DNA of 60,474 nt, the filler included, from Fonticula-like sp. SCN 57-25 (Eukaryota), in assembly GCA_001724245.1 (NCBI GenBank). It is 5 parts of 5 records of this genome, joined end to end, with 100 filler letters (N's around TTAATTAATTAA, not from the genome) between each part and the next. Parts side by side here need not be neighbours in the genome. Positions count along the whole stretch, not along the records: positions 24,930 to 36,775 come from MEDX01000192.1; 4 more parts are not named here. One strand, 5' to 3'. This document shows positions 12,212 through 48,772 of this stretch, piece after piece (the stretch's first letter is position 1; the number at the start of each line of letters is the position of its first letter). Position numbers and translations under genes: made by a program. The notes beneath the pieces are model-generated. The model was not told the origin of the DNA and did not search any database. It saw nothing but the letters and a program-made list of their open reading frames with translations.

Positions 12212-12311
12212 NNNNNNNNNNNNNNNNNNNNNNNNNNNNNNNNNNNNNNNNNNNNTTAATTAATTAANNNNNNNNNNNNNNNNNNNNNNNNNNNNNNNNN
12301 NNNNNNNNNNN
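12212..12311. other. Artificial contig spacer (N-TTAATTAATTAA-N); also at 24830-24929, 36776-36875 and 48673-48772
   Basis: The same 100-nt N run with an all-frame stop linker occurs four times. Confidence 0.97.
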
Positions 12312-23803: not shown

Positions 23804-25353
23804 TAATGAACTGTACACTATGGAAATAATGCATTATGCATTTTTGATATTGCTATAAAAGATGGAGCTATCTAGACGGTGCTAGTACTGGTACTACAAG
23901 GGAAGCTGAGTGGCCATATCCATACAACCGCACGACTTCACATGCTAGTAGCTTTTGCTACTGGGGCACAGCGCGAAAATGAAAGGATTATGGAAGAGCA
24001 CAATGATGTACCAGCAGGTCCAGCACCACTAGAGAGAAATGAGTGGCCTTCCACCTCTATGCTGATAGCTTTTACAACCAGGGCACAGGCCGTGCCCGGT
24101 TGTAAAAGCTATCAGCACCAGAAGTGGTCTCTGTAGGGTTGTAGCTCAATCTATGGACTGTGATTTTCGACGTGATTGGTCGGACGTGGGTGGCATCCTG
24201 TCGTGTGGGCGCGCGAGGTCAATATAGTTTTGAACCTATTATTTGCTATTATATTATTATTAGCTATTACTTGTGGCTATTACTTTATAGTTGATAGCTA
24301 TTATTTCATTGTATGATAGCTATTATTTCACAATTTTGATGGGTATTATATAATTCGATAGCTATTACATCACAGTGCCTAATAGCTATGGCTCGGTCCA
24401 GCGGGGATTCAAGACTAGATCGTATTGGGTCAGATTCGACCTGTCGCGCACGCATTTCACGGGCATTGGGCAGCAGCAATGGCGCCACTTCACGTATGCC
24501 TATTCTATGCGCAACTGGCAGGCGTTCCTTAATGAACCATCCCTCTTCCTCCGCAAACGCCCTTTTCAGATTCGCAACTGCGCTAGCCGACCAGCTGGCC
24601 GTAGGCGGGCGGGTCCTTGATGAGCGGCACAACAACAGACGGTTAGAGCTTGTGCATGAAGCAAGGCAAGTACGCCGAAAAGGGACAACTTACCGCCGCG
24701 CATTTTCCAAGCCTCCACGCATCTTGGTTAGGATTCGCCATTCCAAAAGCGCCTCCTCTTGCACTGGAGCCAGCAGCGGCCTAGGTTCACGCCAGCCAGC
24801 GACGCAACAGAACCGCTACCAGGCGCAAANNNNNNNNNNNNNNNNNNNNNNNNNNNNNNNNNNNNNNNNNNNNTTAATTAATTAANNNNNNNNNNNNNNN
24901 NNNNNNNNNNNNNNNNNNNNNNNNNNNNNTCAGGGTGTAGCGCGAGTGACACTGTATCCATCATGATTAATAACAATGACGATTTTGAAAGTTTTCTTTG
25001 GTTTGCACTTTGAAGGGCAAAAAAGACCATTTATGCTTGTTTTACCTCACGTCAAAGTGTCTTTCATGATAAGCATGGCATACATTCATTTATTGGATCA
25101 CATTCACAATGTTGGTCAAAGTATCACTTTCAGTACAAGCATGAACAGCCTTTCTGAATGAAGCAAGTCCAATGGCACAATTGGGCAAACCTGTAAAGAC
25201 CCTCTCTTCTGATTGGACAATGCTAAAGGACCCTCTCTTTTGATTGGACAAATAAAATTATTCATGGTTCACTCGAGTGTATTGTCTCGTCATATCTACA
25301 ATGGGCGTCAACACCGGCGACGCGCAATAAAACAATAAAGAAAACACTAAAGA

Positions 25354-25430
25354 GAATCAGGAAATATAGAGTTTCATCCAGCCTCATTAGAGTTCAGGAT
25401 TAGCATGAAATATTTTGGAAACATCACATG
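25354..25430 (-). ncRNA. Box C/D snoRNA 8, candidate U6 snRNA Am53 guide (mgU6-53/SNORD8-9-like)
   Basis: C box GTGATGT; D' CTGA with a 10-nt guide to U6 GAUUAGCAUG, +5 = A53; D box CTGA. Confidence 0.65.
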
Positions 25431-25534
25431 AAAAGAGCACGAACAGTCTCGAATAGGGCGCGGCCATACCTGCCAAACAGCACAGTTAGTACAAGTGTAA
25501 ACATAAACCAAACAAAATATAACAAGTATACAAA

Positions 25535-25636
25535 GAGGAATGAAGGGATCAGAAAGCTGGGTTTATGATGGGTCGTCAACGTTTTTCAGTCGAAAGATGG
25601 TGATCAAATTTCTCTCATCACTTTCCTTCATTCCTC
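25535..25636 (-). ncRNA. Box C/D snoRNA 7, double guide: LSU Am807 (snR39/59-like) and Cm2948 (snR69-like)
   Basis: D' guide to CGAAAGAUGGUGA; D guide to AGCUGGGUUUA; 12-bp flanking stem gaggaatgaagg/ccttcattcctc. Confidence 0.85.
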
Positions 25637-25797
25637 ACAACACAACACGAAAGAAAAAAAAAAAGAATATGACGCGTACCTAATAGAATGGTAGCCAATG
25701 GTCGTACGTTGTTGTTACCTTAAGTCGGCAGTCTACAAGAGCAGAGTAAGTATGCATGCAATATAATCACCCAAAACAAATAAAACAACACAATGCA

Positions 25798-25872
25798 AGG
25801 ATCAGATTAAGCTTCTCCATCAGGTGTTACTCTCAGACTCGAAAGATGGTGTAATTTGCTATCATCAGAATA
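25798..25872 (-). ncRNA. Box C/D snoRNA 6, snR39B/SNORD2-like (LSU Gm805 yeast)
   Basis: D' guide complementary to CGAAAGAUGGUG, +5 = G; TGATGA and CTGA boxes. Confidence 0.82.
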
Positions 25873-26031
25873 CCTCACAATACAACACACAAAAAACAAT
25901 CCAATAAAGATAAACGTACCGGTTATGAATAAAGAGGCAAACCAACCCGCCAAAAGCAACGAAACGCTACCATAAAGCGCCCAATGTAAGCATGTTATGC
26001 CAGATAATAATAGATAAAAGGCAGAAATGCA

Positions 26032-26112
26032 TGCATCAGATAAAACAACTCCATCAAAGTAAATACTCAGACGGCAATTCCTATCAATGTGTATTTTGTT
26101 TTTTCATCCCAC
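26032..26112 (-). ncRNA. Box C/D snoRNA 5, snR77/SNORD65-like (18S Um578 yeast)
   Basis: C box GGGATGA, C' TGATGG, D and D' CTGA; guide pairs with CGGUAAUUCC with one G-U. Confidence 0.7.
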
Positions 26113-26228
26113 AACAGCAATACTAAACCGCATCGCAAACCAATGAAACTTACCCAAAATAGTCGACCTATTCAAGTAAAAGTCAGTATTGGAAAAAAGT
26201 AAAGGGGCAGAAAGAAAACACATGAAAT

Positions 26229-26312
26229 AGTATCAGAAGGTAAAACCACAGAAAAGACCGTTTTGTCAAACATGCAGGTTTTTAGACAGCCAAGGGATTG
26301 TTTCATCAGAAT
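26229..26312 (-). ncRNA. Box C/D snoRNA 4, U53/SNORD53-like (LSU Cm3848 human)
   Basis: D' CTAA with a 12-nt guide to ACAGCCAAGGGA (+5 = C); extra match to the overlapping AAACCACAG. Confidence 0.8.
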
Positions 26313-26484
26313 AGCACGCGCACAACATCACCCCTTCCTACACAAATAATAAACGCACCTTGATAGTAGGCGTGTCACGGCCTCATCGTCGTCATCGCGA
26401 GTCGACATGTGTCAAAGTCTATCAGACAGAGAGTTAGTTTCAAGTAGGCAAGGCAATACAACACGAAATAGGCACAAAAAATAA

Positions 26485-26584
26485 AGGATCAGACATCTAA
26501 GGAAGGACAGTTCAACTAGCATTAGTGGGCGACTGCCTACTCTTCAGTGGAAACTGCGAATGAACTGTTTGTTTCATCACACTT
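26485..26584 (-). ncRNA. U14: U14 (snR128) snoRNA
   Basis: Domain A CATTCGCAGTTTCCAC; domain B complementary to 18S ACAUCYAAGGAAGG (Cm414) next to the D box; GTGATGA C box. Confidence 0.93.
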
Positions 26585-26746
26585 TACGGAAAAAATAAAC
26601 ACACAATACTGAAAATTAACATACCTCGCTAGGACTGACGCAATGTTCTTGTGCAGAGGCGTAATGCCATAGCAGGCCTAGACGCGCATTGTAAGTAACC
26701 AAACAAAAGACACTTATTATAGGAGCAAAACAGAAACATATAGGAA

Positions 26747-26836
26747 GAGTCAGACAAAATGGGTAAAGGGTAAGTTGCCTGACGATCTCAACAGTTGAAA
26801 TTCTGACTGGGGCGGCCAGGCAAAGTCATCACACTC
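26747..26836 (-). ncRNA. Box C/D snoRNA 2, snR67/U31-like (LSU P-loop Gm2619 yeast)
   Basis: GTGATGA and CTGA boxes with GAGT/ACTC stem; D' CAGA guide complementary to ACUGGGGCGG, +5 = E. coli G2251 equivalent. Confidence 0.8.
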
Positions 26837-27021
26837 AAACCTCACACACGCGAAAAGAACACACATTTACGACAATAGACACAAAACATACCTCGAGAGC
26901 AAAAAGGCTCTTGTTTCAGATCATGAAGTACATGGTACAGGGCGGGGAATCTAGCAGGTCGAGGGGCAGGTCAGTGACAATGAACGAGAGCGGAAGAGAA
27001 ACACAAAAGAATAGAGGAGGA

Positions 27022-27126
27022 GCGTGTCAGGATTATTGGCTTGCACAGTCGCACGAATGCGACCGTGAGGACTTTTGACTCAGCATGGTCGATAAGTCGG
27101 GGTAAGAAGAACAAGCATCACCCACG
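27022..27126 (-). ncRNA. Box C/D snoRNA 1, snR190/SNORD12-like (LSU Gm2395 yeast / Gm3878 human)
   Basis: C box GTGATGC, D box CTGA, D' CTTA; guide matches LSU CGGGGAAAGAAGA with 1 mismatch and the +5 rule hits the third G; internal 10-bp UUCG hairpin; terminal stem. Confidence 0.65.
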
Positions 27127-27300
27127 TAAAGTGTATAGAGCAGTAGCAGCAGAGGCACACAGAGAGAGCAACATAGAAGCAAGAGCAACACAACCATAAA
27201 ACATTTCAACCAACTCGCACCATTTCATCCGGCCATCTTCAAGCCACGAGCGAGGCAAAAGAAAAGGAAAATCAAAGGAAAGAAACGCCACGCGGCGCTC

Positions 27301-27376
27301 TTTATACCTCAAAAAACTCCACGTGGCCATTCCGCCATTTCACGTGGCCATTTACGTTCGCCCCGCACATCACGTG
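27301..27376 (-). promoter_or_regulatory. TATAAA box and three CACGTG E-boxes upstream of the snoRNA host gene (divergent with PHYH)
   Basis: TATAAA 27306-27301; CACGTG at 27320, 27341 and 27371; CTTTCCTTT pyrimidine tract starting at 27282. Confidence 0.6.
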
Positions 27377-27488
27377 ATTAAATGATATGAATTTCCAAAT
27401 ATGGAAATTTCGCCGTAAAAGGCAAAGGAGTGTTGTTGGTTCCATGTCATTCTTTAGCTTGTCTCCGGCCCGGCCCTCCACCTCCACC

Positions 27489-28481
27489 ATGTCGGATCGC
27501 CTTGCCCAGACCCTTGGTCACCTCTCGAGCGCCCCCGCGGCCGCCGCCACCGCCTCTTCCTCCGCCGCTTCGGGCTATGAGTTTTCGGTTAACCGCAATG
27601 GTCGCCTGACTGCTGCCCAGCGCGACTTTTATGAGAAGAACGGCTTCATCGTCATCAAGGGCGTCGTCCCCCCGTCCGATCTCGAGGCGTACCGCGAGCG
27701 CTTCGTCAAGCTGTGCAACCGCGAGGTTGAGAGCCCCCCCATGATGACTGTGATGCGCGACCTGAGCAACGCCAAGGACCGTCACCTCAAGGGCGAGCAG
27801 ATCATCAACAAGGTCCAGCACTTTGAGGATGATGACGTGCTCTTTTCGTACTGCAAGCACCCCGCCGTGCTCGATTACGTCGAGAGCTTCATCGGCGGCG
27901 ACATCATGAGCGTCCACACGATGCTCATCAACAAGCCCCCGCACGTTGGCGCCCTCGGCCGCCACCCCCTTCACCAGGATCTGCACTACTTCCCCTTCCG
28001 CCCGGCCAACCGCGTCGTGTGCGCCTGGACGGCGATGGAGCGCGTGAGCAAGGCCAACGGCTGCCTCGTCGCCCTCCCCGGCACGCACAAGGGCACCCTT
28101 CTCGAGCACGACTACCCCGAGTGGGGCGACCAGGGCGGCGTCAACAAGATGTACCACGGCGTCAAGGGCATCAGCAAGGACGACAGCGCCATGGCCTACC
28201 TCGAGATGGACCCCGGAGACACCGTCTTCTTCCACCCGATCCTCATTCACGGCTCGGGCGCCAACATGACCAGCGGCTACCGCAAGGCCATCAGCTGCCA
28301 CTATGCCAGCTCAGAGTGCCACTGGATCGACGTCAAGGGCACCAGCCAGGAGTTTGTCGCCGAGGAGATCGCCGACCTCCTCAAGAAGATGACAAAGGGC
28401 GCCGACCTCAGCCTCACAATCCAGGACATCTTCCGCTACAAGAGCAGGCTCGTCCGCGGCGAGTACGGCGAGCTCGTGTAA
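27489..28481 (+). CDS. PHYH: Phytanoyl-CoA dioxygenase, peroxisomal
   Basis: PTS2 RLAQTLGHL; HTMLINKPP, HPLHQDLHYFPFRP, FFHPILIHGSG, RKAISCHYA. Confidence 0.95.
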   Translation: MSDRLAQTLGHLSSAPAAAATASSSAASGYEFSVNRNGRLTAAQRDFYEKNGFIVIKGVVPPSDLEAYRERFVKLCNREVESPPMMTVMRDLSNAKDRHLKGEQIINKVQHFEDDDVLFSYCKHPAVLDYVESFIGGDIMSVHTMLINKPPHVGALGRHPLHQDLHYFPFRPANRVVCAWTAMERVSKANGCLVALPGTHKGTLLEHDYPEWGDQGGVNKMYHGVKGISKDDSAMAYLEMDPGDTVFFHPILIHGSGANMTSGYRKAISCHYASSECHWIDVKGTSQEFVAEEIADLLKKMTKGADLSLTIQDIFRYKSRLVRGEYGELV

Positions 28482-28711
28482 GCGACTTTTATGCAGCCGC
28501 GTGCCCCGCCCTACCTCCCACACAGTGCCATCTGTTTGTTATTGCCATATTGTAGCGTAGCCATTTAGTAAACCCTGCTGTTATATACTATTTTTCTTTC
28601 CCTGTACACCCTCAAAGGCCCGCAAAATAGCCACTGTTCAGTGATACTTTTTGTTTCAGTTCACAGCCATAGTATTATATTATTCAAACAACTCTCTAAA
28701 CACCCCCAAAA

Positions 28712-31700
28712 TCACTTTTGCTTCTTGTCCTTTTGGGGCGCCGCGGCCTCGTCCTCGCGCTTCTTTTGCGCAAGCTTTCCCGCCTCTGCAAACACGCGCT
28801 GCATGTCGGCATCGAGCGCGCTCGACAAGAGCGCGATGCGCTGCCCGCCCGCGCGCTGCAGCTCGTCCATCGTCTCCTGGAAGACAATGTACTCGTCCGT
28901 CTCGTCGATGGGCAGCTCGACAAAGAACTCTTCCTCGAGGCCCGTCGGGAAGCTCCCAAAGCCGTTCTCGCCGTCCTCGTCGTCCTCGTCCTCGTCGTCG
29001 TCCTCGAAAGCGTCCATCTCGGCCGCGTCGTCCTCGTCGTCGGGCCCGCTCGGCACGGCCCCTTCCCTGCGCGCGGCCCTCCCCGCGCGGCGCGTGAGCT
29101 GCTCGAGGTACTGCGCATCCTTTTCGTTAAAGATGTCGTCCTCGTCGCCGATGGCGTTGCCCTCGTCGTCCTCCTCGACCTCGTCGTCATCGTCGTCGTC
29201 GACCTGCTGCATCATGCGGTTCTCGAGGTACGCGCGGCGCAACACCGCCGCCGGCATCGTCTGCAGGAACTTGGCCATCATGGCGACCGACGCAGGGAGA
29301 AAGTTTTGCGCGCTCGCGGGGAGCTGCTCGCTGGGCGTGCGCCACAGCTGGCACAGCGCAATGATCGAGAGCTTCTTGTCGTGCACGCGCACAAAGCGGT
29401 CAGCGTTGGCCGACCACGCGCCGAGGAACATATCCGTCCAGCCCTTGGACTCGAGGTGCGAGAGCGCCAGCGTAGAGTTGTACAGGAGCGCGTTGATGGC
29501 AACCTCGAGGCCGCACACAATCAGCGCGTCCTCCGAGGCGCGCCCCGCCGCCGGCAGCGCCATGTCAATCAGCGTCGGCACCACGTGGTCGATGCGGCCG
29601 CGCAGGCGCATCATGACGGCCTCGATGAGCTTGCACGCGTTGGAGCGCTCAATGTCGCCGGCGCGCGTCGACGTCATCACGCCCTCAATCATCTCGAGCA
29701 CCATCTGCAGGCGCGACGGGTCCGCCATAAAGGCGTCCGAGTCGACGCTAATGTAGTTGTCGATGGCGGGGACCATCTCGGTAAAGTAGTCGAACGCGCT
29801 CATCTTGTACGCCTGGTAAAGCATCGGGAGCACCGACCACATCATGTCAGAGATGGGGCGGCCGTGGATGTACGTGAAGGCGACGACCATCTCGAGGATC
29901 TCCTCAAGCATGTCAAAGTTGGCATTCTGAAGCACGTGCGACATGAGCGGGTAAAAGACGGGCTCGAGCTGCAGCAACACCTGCGGGTGGTCGTCCACCG
30001 CGCGGATCACCGTCAGCATCGTCCGAAGGATGCCCATGATCGTCAGGCCGAGGCCGCCAAACTCGTCATCGTCGTCATCATCGTCCATCATCGCAGCGAG
30101 GCCGCCGGCAGGAGCGCCCAGGCCGCTGCGCGAAAGCTCCTCCTCAAGCATGCCAAGGAACGTGTCGCGCATCTGCGTGCACAGCTGCACGGCAAACGGC
30201 GCCATGTCGTCGGCAAAGGTCTCTACAATGTTGCTCATCACTTGCGTGACGTGCTCAACGCTCGACTCTTGCGTCAGCGCAAGAAGCTCCTGCATCACGA
30301 TCTGCAGGCTCGGGCGGATGTGCTCCTGGACTGAGGGGGTAAACAAAAGTTAGTCGCACTATTTAAACCACAAAAAAGCGCACAGAAAGGCTTCTCGAGG
30401 AGGAAGCTGAGGGCGATGGCCGCCTGGACCTTGACCGGGAGCTCGGGGTCGCGCATGCCGCGAATGACCATGTCGAGGGCGCGGACGATCGTCTGCTCGT
30501 GCTCAAAGTTGAGGCTGCCAAACTGGCCGAGGACCCAGAGCGCGCGGGCGCGGAGGAACGGCGCCGGGCACTCGATCTCTGAGAGGACGTGCGTGTTGAT
30601 GAGCTCCTCCATCTGCGGGATGAGCCACTCGGACTCTTCGATGGTGGTGGACGCGGCCCCAATCATGGCGAGCGCGCCGTCCTTGTGGCGGTAGTTGCGC
30701 TCGGCGGGCGCGGCCGCCGCGTACGACGACAGGATCGAGTGGCAGAACTGGAGGACGACCATGAGCGTGCTCTTCTTGCGCATGCTCACCATACGGTGCA
30801 CAAAGTTCATGGCGGCGGCGACCGGCGAGCGGTACTCCTCCTGCGCGTCAAACTTGGCGCGGAGGTACTCGTGGGGGTCGCTCTCCCACATCTCCTGGTC
30901 GGCGTCCGTGTGGCACAGCAGCGGGAAGCACAAGTCCACAAGGAGCGGGCGCATGTTGTTCTTGAGAAGCGCCCACGTGACAGCGTGGTCAATGCAGTCC
31001 GACGAAAACTCGAGCGTGATTTGCACGAGGCGCGGGGCCACATACCGGCCCTCGATCACCTCGTTCATCTCGGCGAGCAGCGCCTGAAGAATGACAGGGG
31101 TAGTGCTCTTGAGGAACGACTTTGCAAACGCGCGGTGGTGGTCCGGCGCGAGCGTCGGGTTGCCGTACCGCGAGCAGAGGCGGTGAAGCGTGTGGTGGCA
31201 CCACTTTTTGGCGCGCCACCAGGGGCCGTGCGCGCGCTCCCACGGGTCGCTGTTCGCGTCCTCTGCCTGCGCGGGCACAGGCTTGGCCACAAGCGACAGC
31301 AGAGCAGGCACCCACTCGGACAGCGCGTCGCGCAGAGGAATCGAAATGTCGTGCTGAACGGCAGTGAAGAAAATCTTGTTGATAAGGTACATGATCTCGC
31401 CAGCTTCGCGCGTGTCGAGCGTCACGCACGTCTTGTAGTAGTGCAAAAGAACAGGGAAAGTCTGCTGCGTAATGTTGTCGAGCTCGGCGCGCTTGCCAAT
31501 GCCAGCGTACTCAAAGCGCCTCACCAGCTCAAGCAGGATCAGCAGGCCGCCGTGAACAACAGACGGATCCGGTGACGAAAGGAACATTACGACCTTGCCG
31601 AGAAGCTCGGGCCACTTTTCCGGGTAGTCGTGCTGAATAATGATGCCAACGGCAAACAAAAGCTGCGCGCGAAGACGCGGGGGGGACTGAAGGGCCGCCT

Positions 31701-32053
31701 CGACGATCACGCTGCGAACAACCGTGCGATCATGCTCGCTCAGGGTAAAGCGATCCGTCGACTCTCCCTCGACAAAAGGGCGCCAATACTTGATAAGGTT
31801 CTTAAAGTAGATAGCAGCTGGTATGCGCAAGCGCAAAAAACCGCCAGTAAGTAAGGATGAATAGAGCACAGCAATAGGTCGTACCAGACTGCTTCACGTG
31901 CGGCTCCACCGTCGGGATCGTCAAAATCTGCAGCAGCGATGAGCAAAAGCCGGGAACCGTCGAGTTTTCCCGAAGCTGCTTCTCAGCGGCCGTGCGGACC
32001 GCCGGGTCAGGGTTCAGCGTATTGGCCAGCAGGCCGTAGATGGCTTGCTCCAT
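28712..32053 (-). CDS. IPO7: Importin-7/8 (Nmd5/Sxm1 family), 3 exons
   Basis: IBN_N start (TLNPDPAVRTAAEKQL, AAIYFKN), DYPEKWP, WWRAKKW, HKDGAL, FLRARA, RVHDKKL, acidic tail. Confidence 0.92.
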
Positions 32054-32168
32054 GCGCCCGCTTTCCACCGTCGTGCACCACGCGGGTTGCTGGCGGGAAA
32101 TCGTCTGATTTGCGTCTGATTTGACCCCAATCAGACCAAAATCAGGCACAATCACAGACGGCGGGTAG

Positions 32169-33215
32169 ATGTCTGCAGATGATGGCGGCGAGGCGCTCTT
32201 CAATCACGCTGCCAGCGTGCTCATGAGCACCTCCGAGCCAATGTACGTCCATTTTGCGGGCACTGAATTGTCAGTCTGGTAACATTTGCGTAGCATAGAG
32301 ATTGGATTCGTCATGGGCGAGCAAGCGTCGGGGCTCGTTGTTGTCCAAGGGAGGCTGGGGATCCCGTACGCGGTCATCTCCCCGCTGTACAAGTACGCGC
32401 ACGGCCGCGTTGTTTCATTACTAGGTGTCGATTCTATCGATGATGCGCTCGAAGCGGACGCGGTGACGCGCGTCCTTCTCGTGATGAATGCCGATTTCGG
32501 CTCGGTCTGGCATGTCCGAAAGCGCCTGCTGCTCGACGGCCGCCTAACGCTGGACGCCGAGATCAAGTTTATCGATCTCGTCTACACAAAGCACTTTAAA
32601 GCGCAGGAAGCGTGGGCACACCGTCGCTGGCTCTTTCTTCGTCACACGGACGCGCCAGCGCGGCGCCGCGCCGTTCAGTCCGAGCTCGCCGCCTGCGAGC
32701 GCGCCGCCGACCGCTACCCGAAAAACTACATGGCGTGGACGCATCGCCACTTTGTCGCGCGGCACCTGGACAGCGACGAACTCATTGCCGAGCTCAACGC
32801 GCATTTGTCTTTTGCAGTGCGGCACGTATCGGACCACGCCAGCTTTCAGTACCGCTCCTTCCTCCTCGACCTCGCAGCCGGCCTCTTTTCGCCGCCGAAA
32901 GCCGCGGCGCTGCTCCAGGCAGAGGCCGAGTTCAACACTGAGCTTATAACAAGGTTCCCCGGACACGAGGCGCTCTGGTGCCACAGGCGCTTTTTGGCCG
33001 CGCGAGGCGCGCTGGCCGGCCAGGAAGAGCTCGCGTGGTGCGCTTCCGTCGCAGCCGACCCAACCGTTGCCAAGCGAGGCGAGCAGGATAGATGCGCGCG
33101 CGCCTACGCGCTCTTTAGAAAGCACTTGGAGACGCCATTACGTGGCGAGGAACTGTACAAACAACTCACGGGCGATAGGTTATTGTCGCGCGCACGAGCG
33201 CCGAGTAGCACATAG
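32169..33215 (+). CDS. PTAR1: Protein prenyltransferase alpha-subunit repeat protein (PTAR1-like), 2 exons
   Basis: EAWAHRRW, YPKNYMAWTHR, HVSDHASFQYR, FPGHEALWCHRR. Confidence 0.85.
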
Positions 33216-33545
33216 ACGCCGTTGATTCGCGCTCATTTTTGGCTTTTTAAACCTATTTTTGACACCATGTATCGTGAACACTCTTCCCTCTCCTTCTTAC
33301 CTGTTGTACTTATTCAATATTATGATACCTCTGTACCAGCTCTACCCAGACCCCTTTCCCGCCCAAACTGACCAATCAGCGGCGTTATGCTCCTGTTGCA
33401 TTGTCATCATTTCCATGACTGGCTCCTGCAGGACAATGACACGATGTGAACAAGGGGCTGAAAGGATGCCGCCACCAGGAGCTTCCGAGTTATCGCACAG
33501 CAGCGTTCTCGGACCTTCATTTGCGATCCGCCTACTGCCGCTGTC

Positions 33546-34556
33546 ATGTCTCGCATGCTTGCGGTGATCGCCCTTTTGGGGATCGCTTTCTACGCGCACG
33601 GCCAGCGGCTTTCGTCGTACAACGTTGATGCGTCGTCCATCTCCGTATCGGGCTTCCAGTCGGGCGCGTCACTTGCGACGGCCCTTCACGTGTCGCATTC
33701 TTCTCTCTTTGGCGGCGTCGGCCTCGTTGCCGGCTCGCCGTACTACTGCGCCCAGGGTGAGCACGGCAAGATGCTGACGTCGTGCTCGTTCCTGCCCGAG
33801 ACCTTTTCGCTCCGCACGGCGATCAAAAAGGCCGAGTTTAACGCCGAGTACGGCCTCGTCGACCCGCTGCTTAACTTGACGGACTCGCGCGTGTACATTT
33901 ACGCGGGCCGCTTTGACCCGATCATCTCGCCCCAGAACGGCCACAACGTGGAAGACTTTTACAACGTTTTCGTGCGCGATCGCTCGCTGATCAAGACCGT
34001 GTACCACGAGGCCTCCTCGCACGCCTTTATCACGGACAGTTACGGCAACCACTGCCTCAAGCTGGCGCCGCCGTTCATCAACAACTGCGGCTACGACCAG
34101 GCCGGCGACATTCTGCGCCACACGACCGGCCTTAAGCTGCGCGAGCGCGGCTACCCGTCGCCGCTCAACATCTACACCTTTAACCAGAGCGAGTTTGGCG
34201 CAGAGTCGCTCGCCGACAAGGGCTTCATGTACGTGCCAAAGAGCTGCCAGCGCGGTAGCTCGTGCGCCGTGCACGTCGCGCTCCACGGGTGCCTCATGAG
34301 CTACTCGTCGCCGCTCGCCAGGAAGCAGTTTGTCGAGCACTCGGGCTACAACGCTTGGGCAGAGTCCAACGACATTATTATCCTCTACCCGCAGGCCAGC
34401 AGCACGCGCATCGTTGGCGGAAACATCTTTGGATGCTGGGACTTTTACGGGTACACAAACCCGGTCGGCGACGACGGCGCGTACGTCACAAAGGAGGGCG
34501 AGCAGATCAAGGCCATTTACGAAATGGTCCAGCGACTCATCAGTGACGATCAATAA
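33546..34556 (+). CDS. Secreted PHB-depolymerase-like alpha/beta hydrolase, nucleophile Ser replaced by Gln
   Basis: Signal peptide; ISVSGFQSGA, AGSPYYCA, PFINNCGYD, HVALHGC, GYNAWAESNDIIILYPQ, GCWDFYGY. Confidence 0.85.
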   Translation: MSRMLAVIALLGIAFYAHGQRLSSYNVDASSISVSGFQSGASLATALHVSHSSLFGGVGLVAGSPYYCAQGEHGKMLTSCSFLPETFSLRTAIKKAEFNAEYGLVDPLLNLTDSRVYIYAGRFDPIISPQNGHNVEDFYNVFVRDRSLIKTVYHEASSHAFITDSYGNHCLKLAPPFINNCGYDQAGDILRHTTGLKLRERGYPSPLNIYTFNQSEFGAESLADKGFMYVPKSCQRGSSCAVHVALHGCLMSYSSPLARKQFVEHSGYNAWAESNDIIILYPQASSTRIVGGNIFGCWDFYGYTNPVGDDGAYVTKEGEQIKAIYEMVQRLISDDQ

Positions 34557-34699
34557 TCATATTACCTTTTATTGTGGCTTTCAATATATCTTGATACAAA
34601 ACAAAACGACCTTGTCTACGTCTCAATAGATTCTTGGAATTATCAAAAAGGGACTACAATACGCAAATCGTTTATTAATACATTACAAAAAGGTTATTT

Positions 34700-36193
34700 T
34701 CATGTGGAACTTGACGAGCCAGCGGCCTCGGGCGCCGTCGTAATAGCAGTCGCGTCCGATGAGGCCGTTTCTGGCAAGCCACCCCCCACCAGAGTCTCGC
34801 CCTTTACAAATCCGCCCTGAGCTGGCGGCGGCGTCGCATCGTTCGTCTTCCCCTTTGACCGAGATGATTTGTGGCTGCGAGATGACGGCGAGCGGGACCG
34901 GCGTCGGCTGTGCGAAGCCGGCGAGCGCGATCGCCCGCGTTCGCGATGAAAGTGGTCGCGGCTGCGCGACGGCGGCGAGCCAACGTCGTGCGACGACGAC
35001 GAAAGAAACTTGCTCGTCACGTTCTCATTGTCGGCGCCAAGGCCGCGGCTTCCCTTTTGCTTGCTCGCTTTAATCGGCTCTGCAATGCCTTGCCCGTGCG
35101 CGCCCAGCCCCTGGCCTTCCTTGTATCCGAGCTGCTGCAACATTTTGCTGCCCTTTCCAAAGTCGACCGCCGGCGCGCTGTCATTGCGAGGGGCATAGGC
35201 CGGCGCGCCGTCGATCCACTGGCGGCCGCGGATGCCGCGCCTGCGCTCGTCGGGGTCCGAGTTTTCATTCGCAAGGGTGCGCCCGCGCGCGGCGCACTCG
35301 CGCGAGGCCTGCTGCGTAAGGGCGGCAATGTCGTCGTCGGTGGCAGAGTCGCCCGTCATTTCGAGATAGGCGCGCCAGACGCGAACCTCTGCATTGCAGT
35401 CATAGCAGTAATCGAGCCCGTCGACGAGCGGCACAGTGTGAGGGTACAGCGCTACGCGCGTCACCGTGTTGAAGAAGAAAAGCTGCTCCTCATAGAGGCG
35501 GTTGTCATACTCAACGTCGGGCGCGTCGCCCTCCACAATGAGGCGCGACTCTGTGGTCGTAATGGGGCCCCAAATTGGAAGACGAATTTCGCCCTTTGCG
35601 TACATGGTACGCCCGCCGGACCACGGAAGGCGGAACTTGAGCATGCTGCAGACGGGCTTCATGATGCGCATCCACCGCACCTGCGCGTCCTGATCGTCGC
35701 GGACGCGCCGATCCGTCTCGTCCTCTTCAACAAGCTGCCAGTCAGCGGAGCGAATGTCGCTCACAAAGAGCACGTTTTTGCCTTCAAATTCGCGCGCAAC
35801 GTCGTCAGAGAAGAACTCTTGGCGACACAAGATGTTTTCGCTCTCGCGGACCGTGAACGGTGCGGGATCAACGAGCACAAACTTGTGGCTGGGAAAAAGC
35901 TCGGCCAGCATCTTGATATGGGTACCGGGCGCCGCTCCTGCATAGACAACGATATCAGAGCGACTTCCATAGAGGGTTAAAAATTCCACTTCAGAGAGCA
36001 ACAGCTTGCGCTGGCCCCAATGAATCACGCTCTTGACCTCGCCAGTTCGCCGACGGTACTTTGCGATCTGCGAATCGGGCCCCAGTACGCGCGAAAAGGG
36101 GAGATCCGTGCGGCAGCTATAGCCAGCTTCAGTGTTGGTCAGAGCTTGGCGCACATGCGGGCTGCAGCGAGGATCCCGCCACTCGGCTGCCAT
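34700..36193 (-). CDS. Poxvirus VP39-type cap 2'-O-methyltransferase with C-terminal G-patch and RS-rich tail
   Basis: HWGQRKLLLSEVEFL, VVYAGAAPGTHI, FVSDIRS, KFRLPW, ESRL; G-patch GSKMLQQLGYKEGQGLG..GQGI.EPI. Confidence 0.85.
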   Translation of the reverse strand: MAAEWRDPRCSPHVRQALTNTEAGYSCRTDLPFSRVLGPDSQIAKYRRRTGEVKSVIHWGQRKLLLSEVEFLTLYGSRSDIVVYAGAAPGTHIKMLAELFPSHKFVLVDPAPFTVRESENILCRQEFFSDDVAREFEGKNVLFVSDIRSADWQLVEEDETDRRVRDDQDAQVRWMRIMKPVCSMLKFRLPWSGGRTMYAKGEIRLPIWGPITTTESRLIVEGDAPDVEYDNRLYEEQLFFFNTVTRVALYPHTVPLVDGLDYCYDCNAEVRVWRAYLEMTGDSATDDDIAALTQQASRECAARGRTLANENSDPDERRRGIRGRQWIDGAPAYAPRNDSAPAVDFGKGSKMLQQLGYKEGQGLGAHGQGIAEPIKASKQKGSRGLGADNENVTSKFLSSSSHDVGSPPSRSRDHFHRERGRSRSPASHSRRRSRSPSSRSHKSSRSKGKTNDATPPPAQGGFVKGETLVGGGLPETASSDATAITTAPEAAGSSSST

Positions 36194-36495
36194 GGCAGGG
36201 CGCGAACTGAATAGTGACACAGCGCCGCTATGGTGACACAACATGGCCCAATATGGCACATCACGAAAATGGCGCGAAATGGCGCGAAATCAATCACGCA
36301 CAGAAAAGCGGCTGGGAATAGAAAGGGGAATAAGTCCTTGTTTTTAATGCACGTTCTCTCTTCCATTCTATTCAAATTACTTGTATACAGTACAATTATT
36401 TACACAAAAAGTAGCTTATCGTTTGCATACTGTACAAAGGACGAATACATCCGAAATATGTCAAAACATTATTCGCGGCGCGCGCCGCACCACTT

Positions 36496-36775
36496 TTATA
36501 CTAGATTAGGGATGCCCAGGTGCAGCCGACAGTATCCCAGTAGCTCGCTGACAGGGCCGGGAACGAGCGTGCTGGTATCTTCGATGAACTTTTTGTGGCC
36601 ATCATAGCGAGACTTGTTGTCGGTCATCTCGTAAAAGATGCTGCCGGCCGACTTCATGACGTAGCGGTACAGCGGGAGCGGCACGATCTCAATCTTGAGG
36701 CCAGCGAGCGATGCGCGATAAAAGAGATTCCAATCGACGTACGGGGAGCGACTCCGGTCGCCAGTGTTGTGACCG
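36496..36775 (-). CDS. C-terminal fragment of a GT2-like glycosyltransferase
   Basis: YVDWNLFYRASLAGLKIEIVPLPLYRY; 5' part cut by spacer. Confidence 0.5.
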
Positions 36776-37309
36776 NNNNNNNNNNNNNNNNNNNNNNNNN
36801 NNNNNNNNNNNNNNNNNNNTTAATTAATTAANNNNNNNNNNNNNNNNNNNNNNNNNNNNNNNNNNNNNNNNNNNNGGGGGATGAAAAGGACGGCGACATG
36901 GCCATTTACTGAGCTCCCCCGATCGATGACTCTGGTAGGTCGATTGGGTCACTAGAGGGAGTTGTCGTTTATTTGGCCATGTGGTCTACCTTTCTGAATT
37001 TCCGCTTTTGCACATACTATGTCTTTTCTTTGTGTACAATAATAATACTATCGAGCACTGCCTTTCACACGTCATCCGAAAATATGTATTCATGAATAGC
37101 GAGAAAAGAGAGCAAGCGGTTTATCAATAGTCGACACACTGTTAGAAATGCTCCAATGAGCACAGATCGAGCGAATACAACGTCCATAAAGAGGTAATTA
37201 ATGGAAAGCGGCATACGATACACGACTTGATATATAAAAAGCAATCAAAGCACTATAAATGCGACAAGGAGGCGCGTCCCTCCCGCCGATCAAAACCGTC
37301 CGCCTCTCC

Positions 37310-48013: not shown

Positions 48014-48772
48014 AGTTGTGTGTACACAATAACACTGATGCACCATTTTTATTGCTCTTTTGCTTATCCACACGTGGGACACTTGGTCCACGGGCGCACT
48101 CTGCGGCGCGTCCATCGATATGTTTCCTGGCTGGCTTCTTTCACGCCTCTCGATTTTTTCGAATGACTGCGCGTCCTTGCGCGTGGGCGTCCACAATTTA
48201 AGCTGTCCACTGCAGATAGGTGATTGTGGCTGTTCATAAATGGTCAAAGTTTCATTGAGAACGACAAAGGCACAAAGGCTAACTAGCTAGCAGATCGAAT
48301 AACAATGCCGAACAAAACATGCTTACATACATATCGAAAATGATAAAAATTAAATGTCACATGCGATAAGCATACACTAGTGACAAAATGAAAGGGCATG
48401 ATGATGCTAAATGACCCTATAGTCCATGCAAAGACCCGGGTGCGCCTGCAGGTCGGGCGGCAGGTGGACCACCGTGGACAAATCCCATGCCATCATATCA
48501 CTGCTGCCCGTGCACACGCGGAACGTGGCCGGCGTCGGCGGCTCGGGGGCGCATATCAAGAACCCATTCACGACCCGGCACACCTGTGTCGCCGCCGACA
48601 GCGGCCCGCCAATATCAATCCGCTGAAGCGCTGGGTTGTGCGCAATCGTCGCCGTCCCGTTGAAGACGAGATNNNNNNNNNNNNNNNNNNNNNNNNNNNN
48701 NNNNNNNNNNNNNNNNTTAATTAATTAANNNNNNNNNNNNNNNNNNNNNNNNNNNNNNNNNNNNNNNNNNNN

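Follow-up and report, generated by a model that had tools for sequence, protein, structure and literature searches.

A probable zero-length exon between two box C/D snoRNA introns in a host gene of a probably non-fungal eukaryote

On the minus strand of the DNA analysed here, two complete spliceosomal introns, each carrying a box C/D snoRNA, probably abut around an exon of zero length and would be removed sequentially, a reading that we favour on the basis of the splice signals, of their spacing and of the regular construction of the gene. This layout, with abutting snoRNA introns and an exon reduced to nothing, is already documented in snoRNA host genes of yeasts and other fungi.

The window, that is the whole stretch of 60,474 nucleotides that was analysed, is made of five pieces of ~12 kb each. 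The joints lie at 12212-12311, 24830-24929, 36776-36875 and 48673-48772, their spacers have the form N44-TTAATTAATTAA-N44, and features are not readable across them. The host gene occupies the minus strand of the third piece (24930-36775), from about 27290 to 25070, in an AT-rich stretch (38-48% GC vs 51-67% in bins over the neighbouring genes). Eight introns were located, with one box C/D snoRNA per intron. The features, from 5' to 3' of the gene, are the following.

27301-27376, minus strand: putative promoter, with CACGTG three times (27376-27371, 27346-27341, 27325-27320) and TATAAA (27306-27301)
27221-27290, minus strand: exon 1, its 5' end guessed and set just 3' of the TATA box
26951-27220, minus strand: intron 1, 270 nt, GTGCGA...CACTGAC...TAG, with C/D snoRNA 1 (C to D box 27120-27027)
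26678-26891, minus strand: intron 2, 214 nt, GTATGT...TACTTAC...TAG, with C/D snoRNA 2 (26831-26750)
26419-26624, minus strand: intron 3, 206 nt, with U14-like snoRNA 3 (26579-26489)
26168-26358, minus strand: intron 4, 191 nt, with C/D snoRNA 4 (D box end 26233)
26154-26167, minus strand: exon 5, a micro-exon of 14 nt, GTCGACTATTTTGG
25967-26153, minus strand: intron 5, 187 nt, GTAAGT...TGCTTAC...TAG, with C/D snoRNA 5 (26109-26036)
25733-25919, minus strand: intron 6, 187 nt, with C/D snoRNA 6 (25867-25802)
25680-25732, minus strand: exon 7, 53 nt, the last real exon 5' of the junction
25470-25679, minus strand: intron 7, 210 nt, donor GTACGC, branch site TACTAAC with its A at 25486, CAG acceptor whose last base is 25470
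25469-25470, minus strand: probable zero-length exon, acceptor G at 25470 followed by donor G at 25469, CAG/GTATGG
25296-25469, minus strand: intron 8, 174 nt, donor GTATGG, branch site TGTTGAC with its A at 25308, TAG acceptor whose last base is 25296
25070-25295, minus strand: last exon, with AATAAA at 25094-25089, its 3' end approximate

From 5' to 3', the internal exons measure 59, 53, 60, 14, 47, 53 and 0 nt. The 14 nt of exon 5 imply that the gene tolerates very small exons. This micro-exon is also a second sign of shrinking exons in the host gene. The spliced model is 592 nt long and its longest ATG-initiated ORF spans only 49 aa, and for this reason the host RNA is called non-coding. 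Two direct copies of TCCAATCA(A/G)AAGAGAGGGTC are found in the last exon (25248-25229 and 25217-25198). Upstream, the promoter stretch of ~150 nt may be bidirectional and common to the host gene and to the divergent PhyH (phytanoyl-CoA dioxygenase) gene on the plus strand (27444-28481).

The snoRNAs themselves were compared with Rfam. At gathering thresholds there was no match anywhere in the window, and the matches given here were taken by E-value and all lie below the gathering score. The clearest is that of snoRNA 3 to SNORD14 (U14), at 26485-26585 (49.7 bits, E 6.9e-09; gathering score 64). snoRNA 7 (C to D box 25620-25549) matches snoMe28S-Am982 at 25546-25626 (37.8 bits, E 0.00032; gathering score 49), as does snoRNA 6 (27.5 bits, below gathering score). 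Weak matches, below gathering score as well, link snoRNA 1 to SNORD12 (27049-27131, 25.2 bits), snoRNA 2 to snoU31b (24.2 bits) and snoRNA 5 to SNORD49 and Afu_300. For snoRNA 8 (C to D box 25426-25357), the match is to the plant snoR53Y via the D' guide CATGCTAAT (22.8 bits, E 0.034 on 191 nt, sub-gathering). In Neurospora crassa, CD11 (18S-Am793, D' guide) is listed as the counterpart of snR53 and snoR53Y (PMC2780460). C, D', C' and D boxes as well as guide elements are present in both snoRNAs 7 and 8; the latter has a UGAUGU C box and, by eye, no obvious terminal stem. Two further candidate snoRNA introns found by regular expression (60424-60160 and 18084-17833) were judged to be chance occurrences, being without Rfam snoRNA support on that strand.

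A 13-nt element, CACCATCTTTCGA, is common to snoRNA 6 and snoRNA 7. As these two share this guide element and have similar 5' flanks, they look like a tandem duplicate pair housed in adjacent introns. Since snoRNA 7 duplicates the guide of snoRNA 6, selection for an intron of its own may be weak. When exon 6 plus intron 6 were aligned with exon 7 plus intron 7, similarity was confined to the shared 5' half of the snoRNAs, and this alignment is mute on how the exon was lost.

Relatives of the locus were searched with a pattern made of the snoRNA 7 guide, the D box and the snoRNA 8 guide with gaps between them, the spacing tolerance being about ±30 nt. With the gap as in the window, the pattern retrieved one relative, the metagenome contig L001, ~99% identical. 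With a longer gap suited to a real exon, no metagenome contig matched, larger exons or changed guides being bound to escape such a search. Genome contigs gave no match to the guide and D-box pattern in either gap range at this tolerance, and no viral contig matched the snoRNA 7/8 guide pattern. Between L001 and the window, 14 of 1322 aligned bases differ, ten in intron spacers and four in exon 4, with none in snoRNA bodies and none in splice sites. This distribution would fit constraint on the snoRNAs and on the signals in general, and is powerless for the junction: the AG/GT is identical in L001, which is itself ~99% identical overall and too close for conservation to carry weight, and with only 14 differences this identity tests nothing about conservation of the site. 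L001 stays ~99% identical until 17 nt into the last exon (25279) and then diverges totally (L001 1444-1495). Either the 3' end of the host gene differs structurally between the two, or the contig is chimeric at its end.

These comparisons bear on whether the locus works at all. It could be unexpressed as modelled, or snoRNA 8 could be a decaying pseudogene, leaving the junction without present function. The lack of any Rfam match at gathering score in the window would agree with this, but eight regularly built snoRNA introns, the U14 match at E 6.9e-09, guide elements common to the Rfam consensus and the fact that 0 of the 14 L001 differences touch snoRNA bodies or splice sites all point in the other direction, and we consider a non-functional locus very improbable.

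All eight introns share one plan, and introns 7 and 8 both fit it. From intron 1 to intron 8, the donor is separated from the C box by 100, 60, 45, 28 (50 if the alternative C box is taken), 44, 52, 59 and 43 nt, the D-box end from the branch A by 55, 57, 54, 49, 48, 54, 62 and 48 nt, and the branch A from the acceptor by 20, 14, 15, 15, 20, 14, 16 and 12 nt. The acceptor is the first AG past the branch in all eight. The ambiguity in intron 4 comes from its first C-box candidate (GTGATG, about 26328-26330), which reads GTGCTG in L001, so that the real C box of snoRNA 4 is probably CTGATGA at 26308, 22 nt downstream; the distance from the donor of intron 4 is then 50 nt, like in the other introns. 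In N. crassa, the 5' splice site lies mainly 41-60 nt from the snoRNA (PMC2780460). Elsewhere in the third piece, an importin-like gene (28712-31893) contains a short intron of ~53 nt (about 30329-30381, minus strand; GTGCGC...GACTAAC...CAG). This predicted coding-gene intron, with its GACTAAC, shows that the signals of the junction would be the normal ones of the organism, including a strong branch consensus.

At the junction, the minus strand reads ...cacttgTACTAACtgtgctgtttggCAG/GTATGGccgcg..., in which the acceptor G of CAG is 25470 and the donor G of GTATGG is 25469 (the slash marks the splice boundary). In full, the arrangement is TACTAAC-tgtgctgtttgg-CAG/GTATGG, with 11 nt between TACTAAC and CAG. 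Upstream and downstream introns each possess their own branch site and acceptor at a spacing normal for the gene, the branch A at 25486 sitting 16 nt before the first AG in intron 7 and that at 25308 sitting 12 nt before the first AG in intron 8. Together they amount to 384 nt (210 + 174).

The first-pass annotation had described an acceptor at 25470 directly abutting a donor at 25469, and this is exact to the base. The 42 nt that it gave between this donor and the snoRNA 8 C box are recovered when counting to the leading purine of the box, the distance to the T of UGAUGU being 43 nt. It had also attributed to intron 8 its own branch and a TAG acceptor at 25296, which we confirm, with the branch A at 25308. 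Its range of 44-60 nt for the corresponding distance in introns 2-7 is roughly right in view of the measured 60, 45, 28 or 50, 44, 52 and 59 nt. Finally, it had seen no other good donor in between, and indeed no GT[AG]NG other than that at 25469 occurs from 25469 to 25083. As to its interpretation, two introns around a zero-length exon, the sequence anatomy matches; recursive splicing itself is a prediction from that anatomy, and the qualification of the case as an unusual use of the mechanism does not stand.

The scarcity of donors also bears on a cryptic micro-exon, which would be created by another acceptor, or by another donor downstream of 25469. The gene does have a 14-nt exon, but besides the lack of a GT[AG]NG donor over this interval, all eight introns take the first AG past the branch, whereas the next AG at the junction is 38 nt from the branch A, and a later donor would fall within ~20 nt of the C box. 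There is thus little chance, in our estimation, that such an exon is hidden here.

We defined a composite motif as a branch motif followed by 6-30 nt and YAG/GTRNG. At the junction this motif is rare by chance: when the 122-nt spacer that runs from the snoRNA 7 D box to the snoRNA 8 C box was shuffled 20000 times with dinucleotides preserved, 28 shuffles contained it, and it has five occurrences in the whole 60-kb window, both strands summed. The shuffle null addresses chance origin only and says nothing on whether inherited signals are still used. The rarity of the motif excludes that it arose by chance, but as the signals would be inherited from two original introns, it does not demonstrate present use.

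Present use can be questioned first for the donor. At +6, GTATGG carries a G, in contrast to the seven others, of which five have T and the rest A or C, and owing to this G it is the least typical among the eight donors of the gene. One may then suppose that only the donor at 25679 works, pairing alternatively with the acceptor at 25470 or with that at 25296, and that GTATGG never acts as a donor. The EST and RT-PCR products of the fungal clusters fit such a scheme equally well as stepwise splicing, according to Luo et al. 2013 (PMC3596301). However, splicing to 25470 would give a dead-end RNA with intron 8 retained, and it would have to be a coincidence that a donor-like hexamer falls right on the junction, 43 nt ahead of the C box. 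Moreover, in a comparable intron of Schizosaccharomyces pombe, the internal zero-length exon was revealed by spliceosome-bound 5'-P and 3'-OH ends (10.1101/226894). On balance, we find it quite unlikely that a single donor serves both acceptors.

The second question is whether the two introns are still distinct. The stretch could be a single intron of 384 nt (25679 to 25296) that contains two snoRNAs and is removed in one step, the internal signals being a relic of a recent exon deletion and an endonuclease separating the snoRNAs. Exon skipping over snoRNA introns exists as a minor pathway in clusters of N. crassa (PMC2780460) and of Candida parapsilosis (PMC5033589), and multiple snoRNAs per intron are known from rice and Drosophila (PMC2780460); in addition, the near-identical L001 is unable to show selection on the junction. 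On the other side, both internal signals agree with the rest of the gene in consensus and in spacing, and the D box of snoRNA 7 would end 240 nt before the sole branch (25308), against 48-62 nt elsewhere. The spacer has a predicted MFE of -15 kcal/mol (z +1.36), equalled or bettered by 187 of 200 shuffles; as it folds no better than shuffles, nothing points to a stem at which an endonuclease could separate the snoRNAs, of the kind that an RNase III-type cut would use. Removal as one intron therefore appears unlikely to us, and to annotate 25679-25296 as one intron of 384 nt would probably be wrong, which gives the site some value for annotation.

We come back to the sequential removal of two complete introns, and propose the following course for it. 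The exon that formerly separated the introns of snoRNA 7 and snoRNA 8 would have shrunk to zero. During spliceosome assembly, the machinery for a 3' splice site and that for a 5' splice site can hardly occupy adjacent bases together. Since these two signals overlap here on the same few bases, we infer that introns 7 and 8 are removed one after the other. The order would most likely be 5' to 3', by analogy with the fungal clusters. In a first step, exon 7 would be ligated to GTATGG, regenerating a donor (TAG/GTATGG), and in a second step this regenerated donor would be spliced to 25295. The reverse order appears workable by sequence as well: if intron 8 left first, the product would read ...TTTGGCAG/ATATGA, with an intact acceptor. 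Each step would yield a lariat of ~200 nt in which a single snoRNA keeps its customary spacing to the branch point of that intron. The benefit could be precisely this, one snoRNA per lariat, 48-62 nt upstream of its own branch as in the other six introns. Debranching followed by exonucleolytic trimming could then free both snoRNAs by the ordinary one-snoRNA-per-intron route. It is from the layout of the gene that we infer transcription of the junction, its splicing order and the release route.

Which organism carries this gene was approached through the neighbouring coding sequences. The PhyH protein has one relative at 75% identity, and among its named relatives animals and Capsaspora come first (49-59% identity, best 120 proteins). 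An ORF on the minus strand (34700-36289) encodes a cap 2'-O-methyltransferase-type domain (Pfam PARP_regulatory) together with a G-patch, and the named relatives that rank highest for it are Monosiga brevicollis (54%) and Capsaspora (51-52%), again within the best 120 proteins. Neither search gave a fungal name within its top 120 proteins, and these neighbours speak against a filamentous ascomycete. Two exact proteins were found, both confined to ENA or Logan assemblies. The organism is thus probably an unsampled, non-fungal opisthokont. It would be an unplaced, intron-poor and GC-rich microbial eukaryote, possibly a holozoan.

This non-fungal lineage is the sole respect in which the junction may extend the known range. 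Our literature search, which covered a limited body of papers, turned up only the fungal reports of such junctions. That the host is an unsampled holozoan-like protist, and its gene the first snoRNA host outside Fungi with a zero-length exon and obligatory recursion, is a tentative proposal, which we hold to be possible but rather doubtful. If it were true, the loss of exons that separate snoRNA introns, like the recursive removal of short introns, would be either ancestral to opisthokonts or repeatedly arising under intron definition, and the arrangement could represent a step from intronic toward polycistronic snoRNA genes. In any case, the junction is a data point on the evolution of snoRNA gene organisation and opens no new mechanism.

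Several known systems resemble the junction in part. Metazoan ratchet or recursive splice sites, reportedly described by Duff 2015 and Sibley 2015, share the same chemistry, in which a 5' splice site is restored at AG/GT once the first ligation has taken place. Such sites subdivide very long introns of many kb, whereas the stretch here totals 384 nt, and the purpose here is likely to obtain one lariat per snoRNA rather than to handle intron length. Stwintrons, the spliceosomal twin introns of filamentous fungi, are likewise two introns taken consecutively from one stretch, but there the inner intron breaks up one of the splice signals of the outer intron, which makes the order obligatory. In introns 7 and 8 all signals are complete, none is interrupted, and either order leaves an intact site, which sets them apart from stwintrons. 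Nor does the region correspond to an intronic snoRNA cluster of the rice or Drosophila type, as a full branch, acceptor and donor stand between snoRNAs 7 and 8 and the spacer folds with a z of +1.36.

The closest systems are fungal. The same layout is found in filamentous ascomycetes, Debaryomyces, Yarrowia, the C. parapsilosis group and S. pombe, with support from ESTs, RT-PCR, RNA-seq or spliceosome profiling (PMC3596301, PMC5033589, 10.1101/226894). Consequently, the first-pass annotation is mistaken in seeing here an unusual use of a mechanism found chiefly in very long animal introns. In polycistronic snoRNA clusters I-III of fungi, Luo et al. 2013 (PMC3596301) described juxtaposed snoRNA introns without exons as 'complex introns', tabulated 61 exon-loss events (Table S3) and obtained ESTs and RT-PCR products consistent with stepwise removal, the fungal clusters showing only the 5'-to-3' order; they left room for a single working donor with alternative acceptors. 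They credit their reference 15 for the Candida and Yarrowia cases (PMC3596301). The present gene has in common with these clusters a non-coding host, one C/D snoRNA per intron and the loss of an internal exon, and where their complex introns consist of two or three complete introns side by side, it has two, introns 7 and 8. It differs in its snoRNAs, since the fungal clusters are snR72-78, snR57-55-61 and snR41-70-51 while here one U14-like, two Me28S-Am982-like, one snR53-like and four others make up the eight, and in its host organism, which is probably not a fungus. The earlier Candida and Yarrowia work is presumably that of Mitrovich et al. 2010.

As for short introns, recursive splicing of a 375-nt intron was reported in Cryptococcus neoformans by Burke et al. 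2017 (10.1101/224170). Chen et al. 2018 (10.1101/226894) found a zero-length exon in a 336-nt intron of S. pombe SPNCRNA.445, the host of snoRNA61, on the evidence of spliceosome-bound 5'-P and 3'-OH ends and of RT-PCR, and this exon is conserved in other Schizosaccharomyces species. In both the S. pombe gene and the window, a short snoRNA-host intron (~340-380 nt) is split by a 3' splice site adjoining a 5' splice site; at the present junction each half carries a snoRNA, which is not stated for SPNCRNA.445. Donovan et al. 2016 (PMC5033589) give an exon size of zero in snoRNA clusters of Candida and Debaryomyces, and cite D. hansenii, in which the exon separating snR41 from snR70 has a length of zero. 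As in those clusters, the AG/GT between the snoRNA introns is such that either order can regenerate the site, the RNA-seq support being that of Donovan et al. only. In several of their cases the introns are nested or have a one-base overlap, so that the order matters, whereas introns 7 and 8 are complete and independent. The junction would thus add a further example, in a different snoRNA cluster and probably in a different eukaryotic lineage, of host genes in which exons are lost and one lariat per snoRNA is kept.
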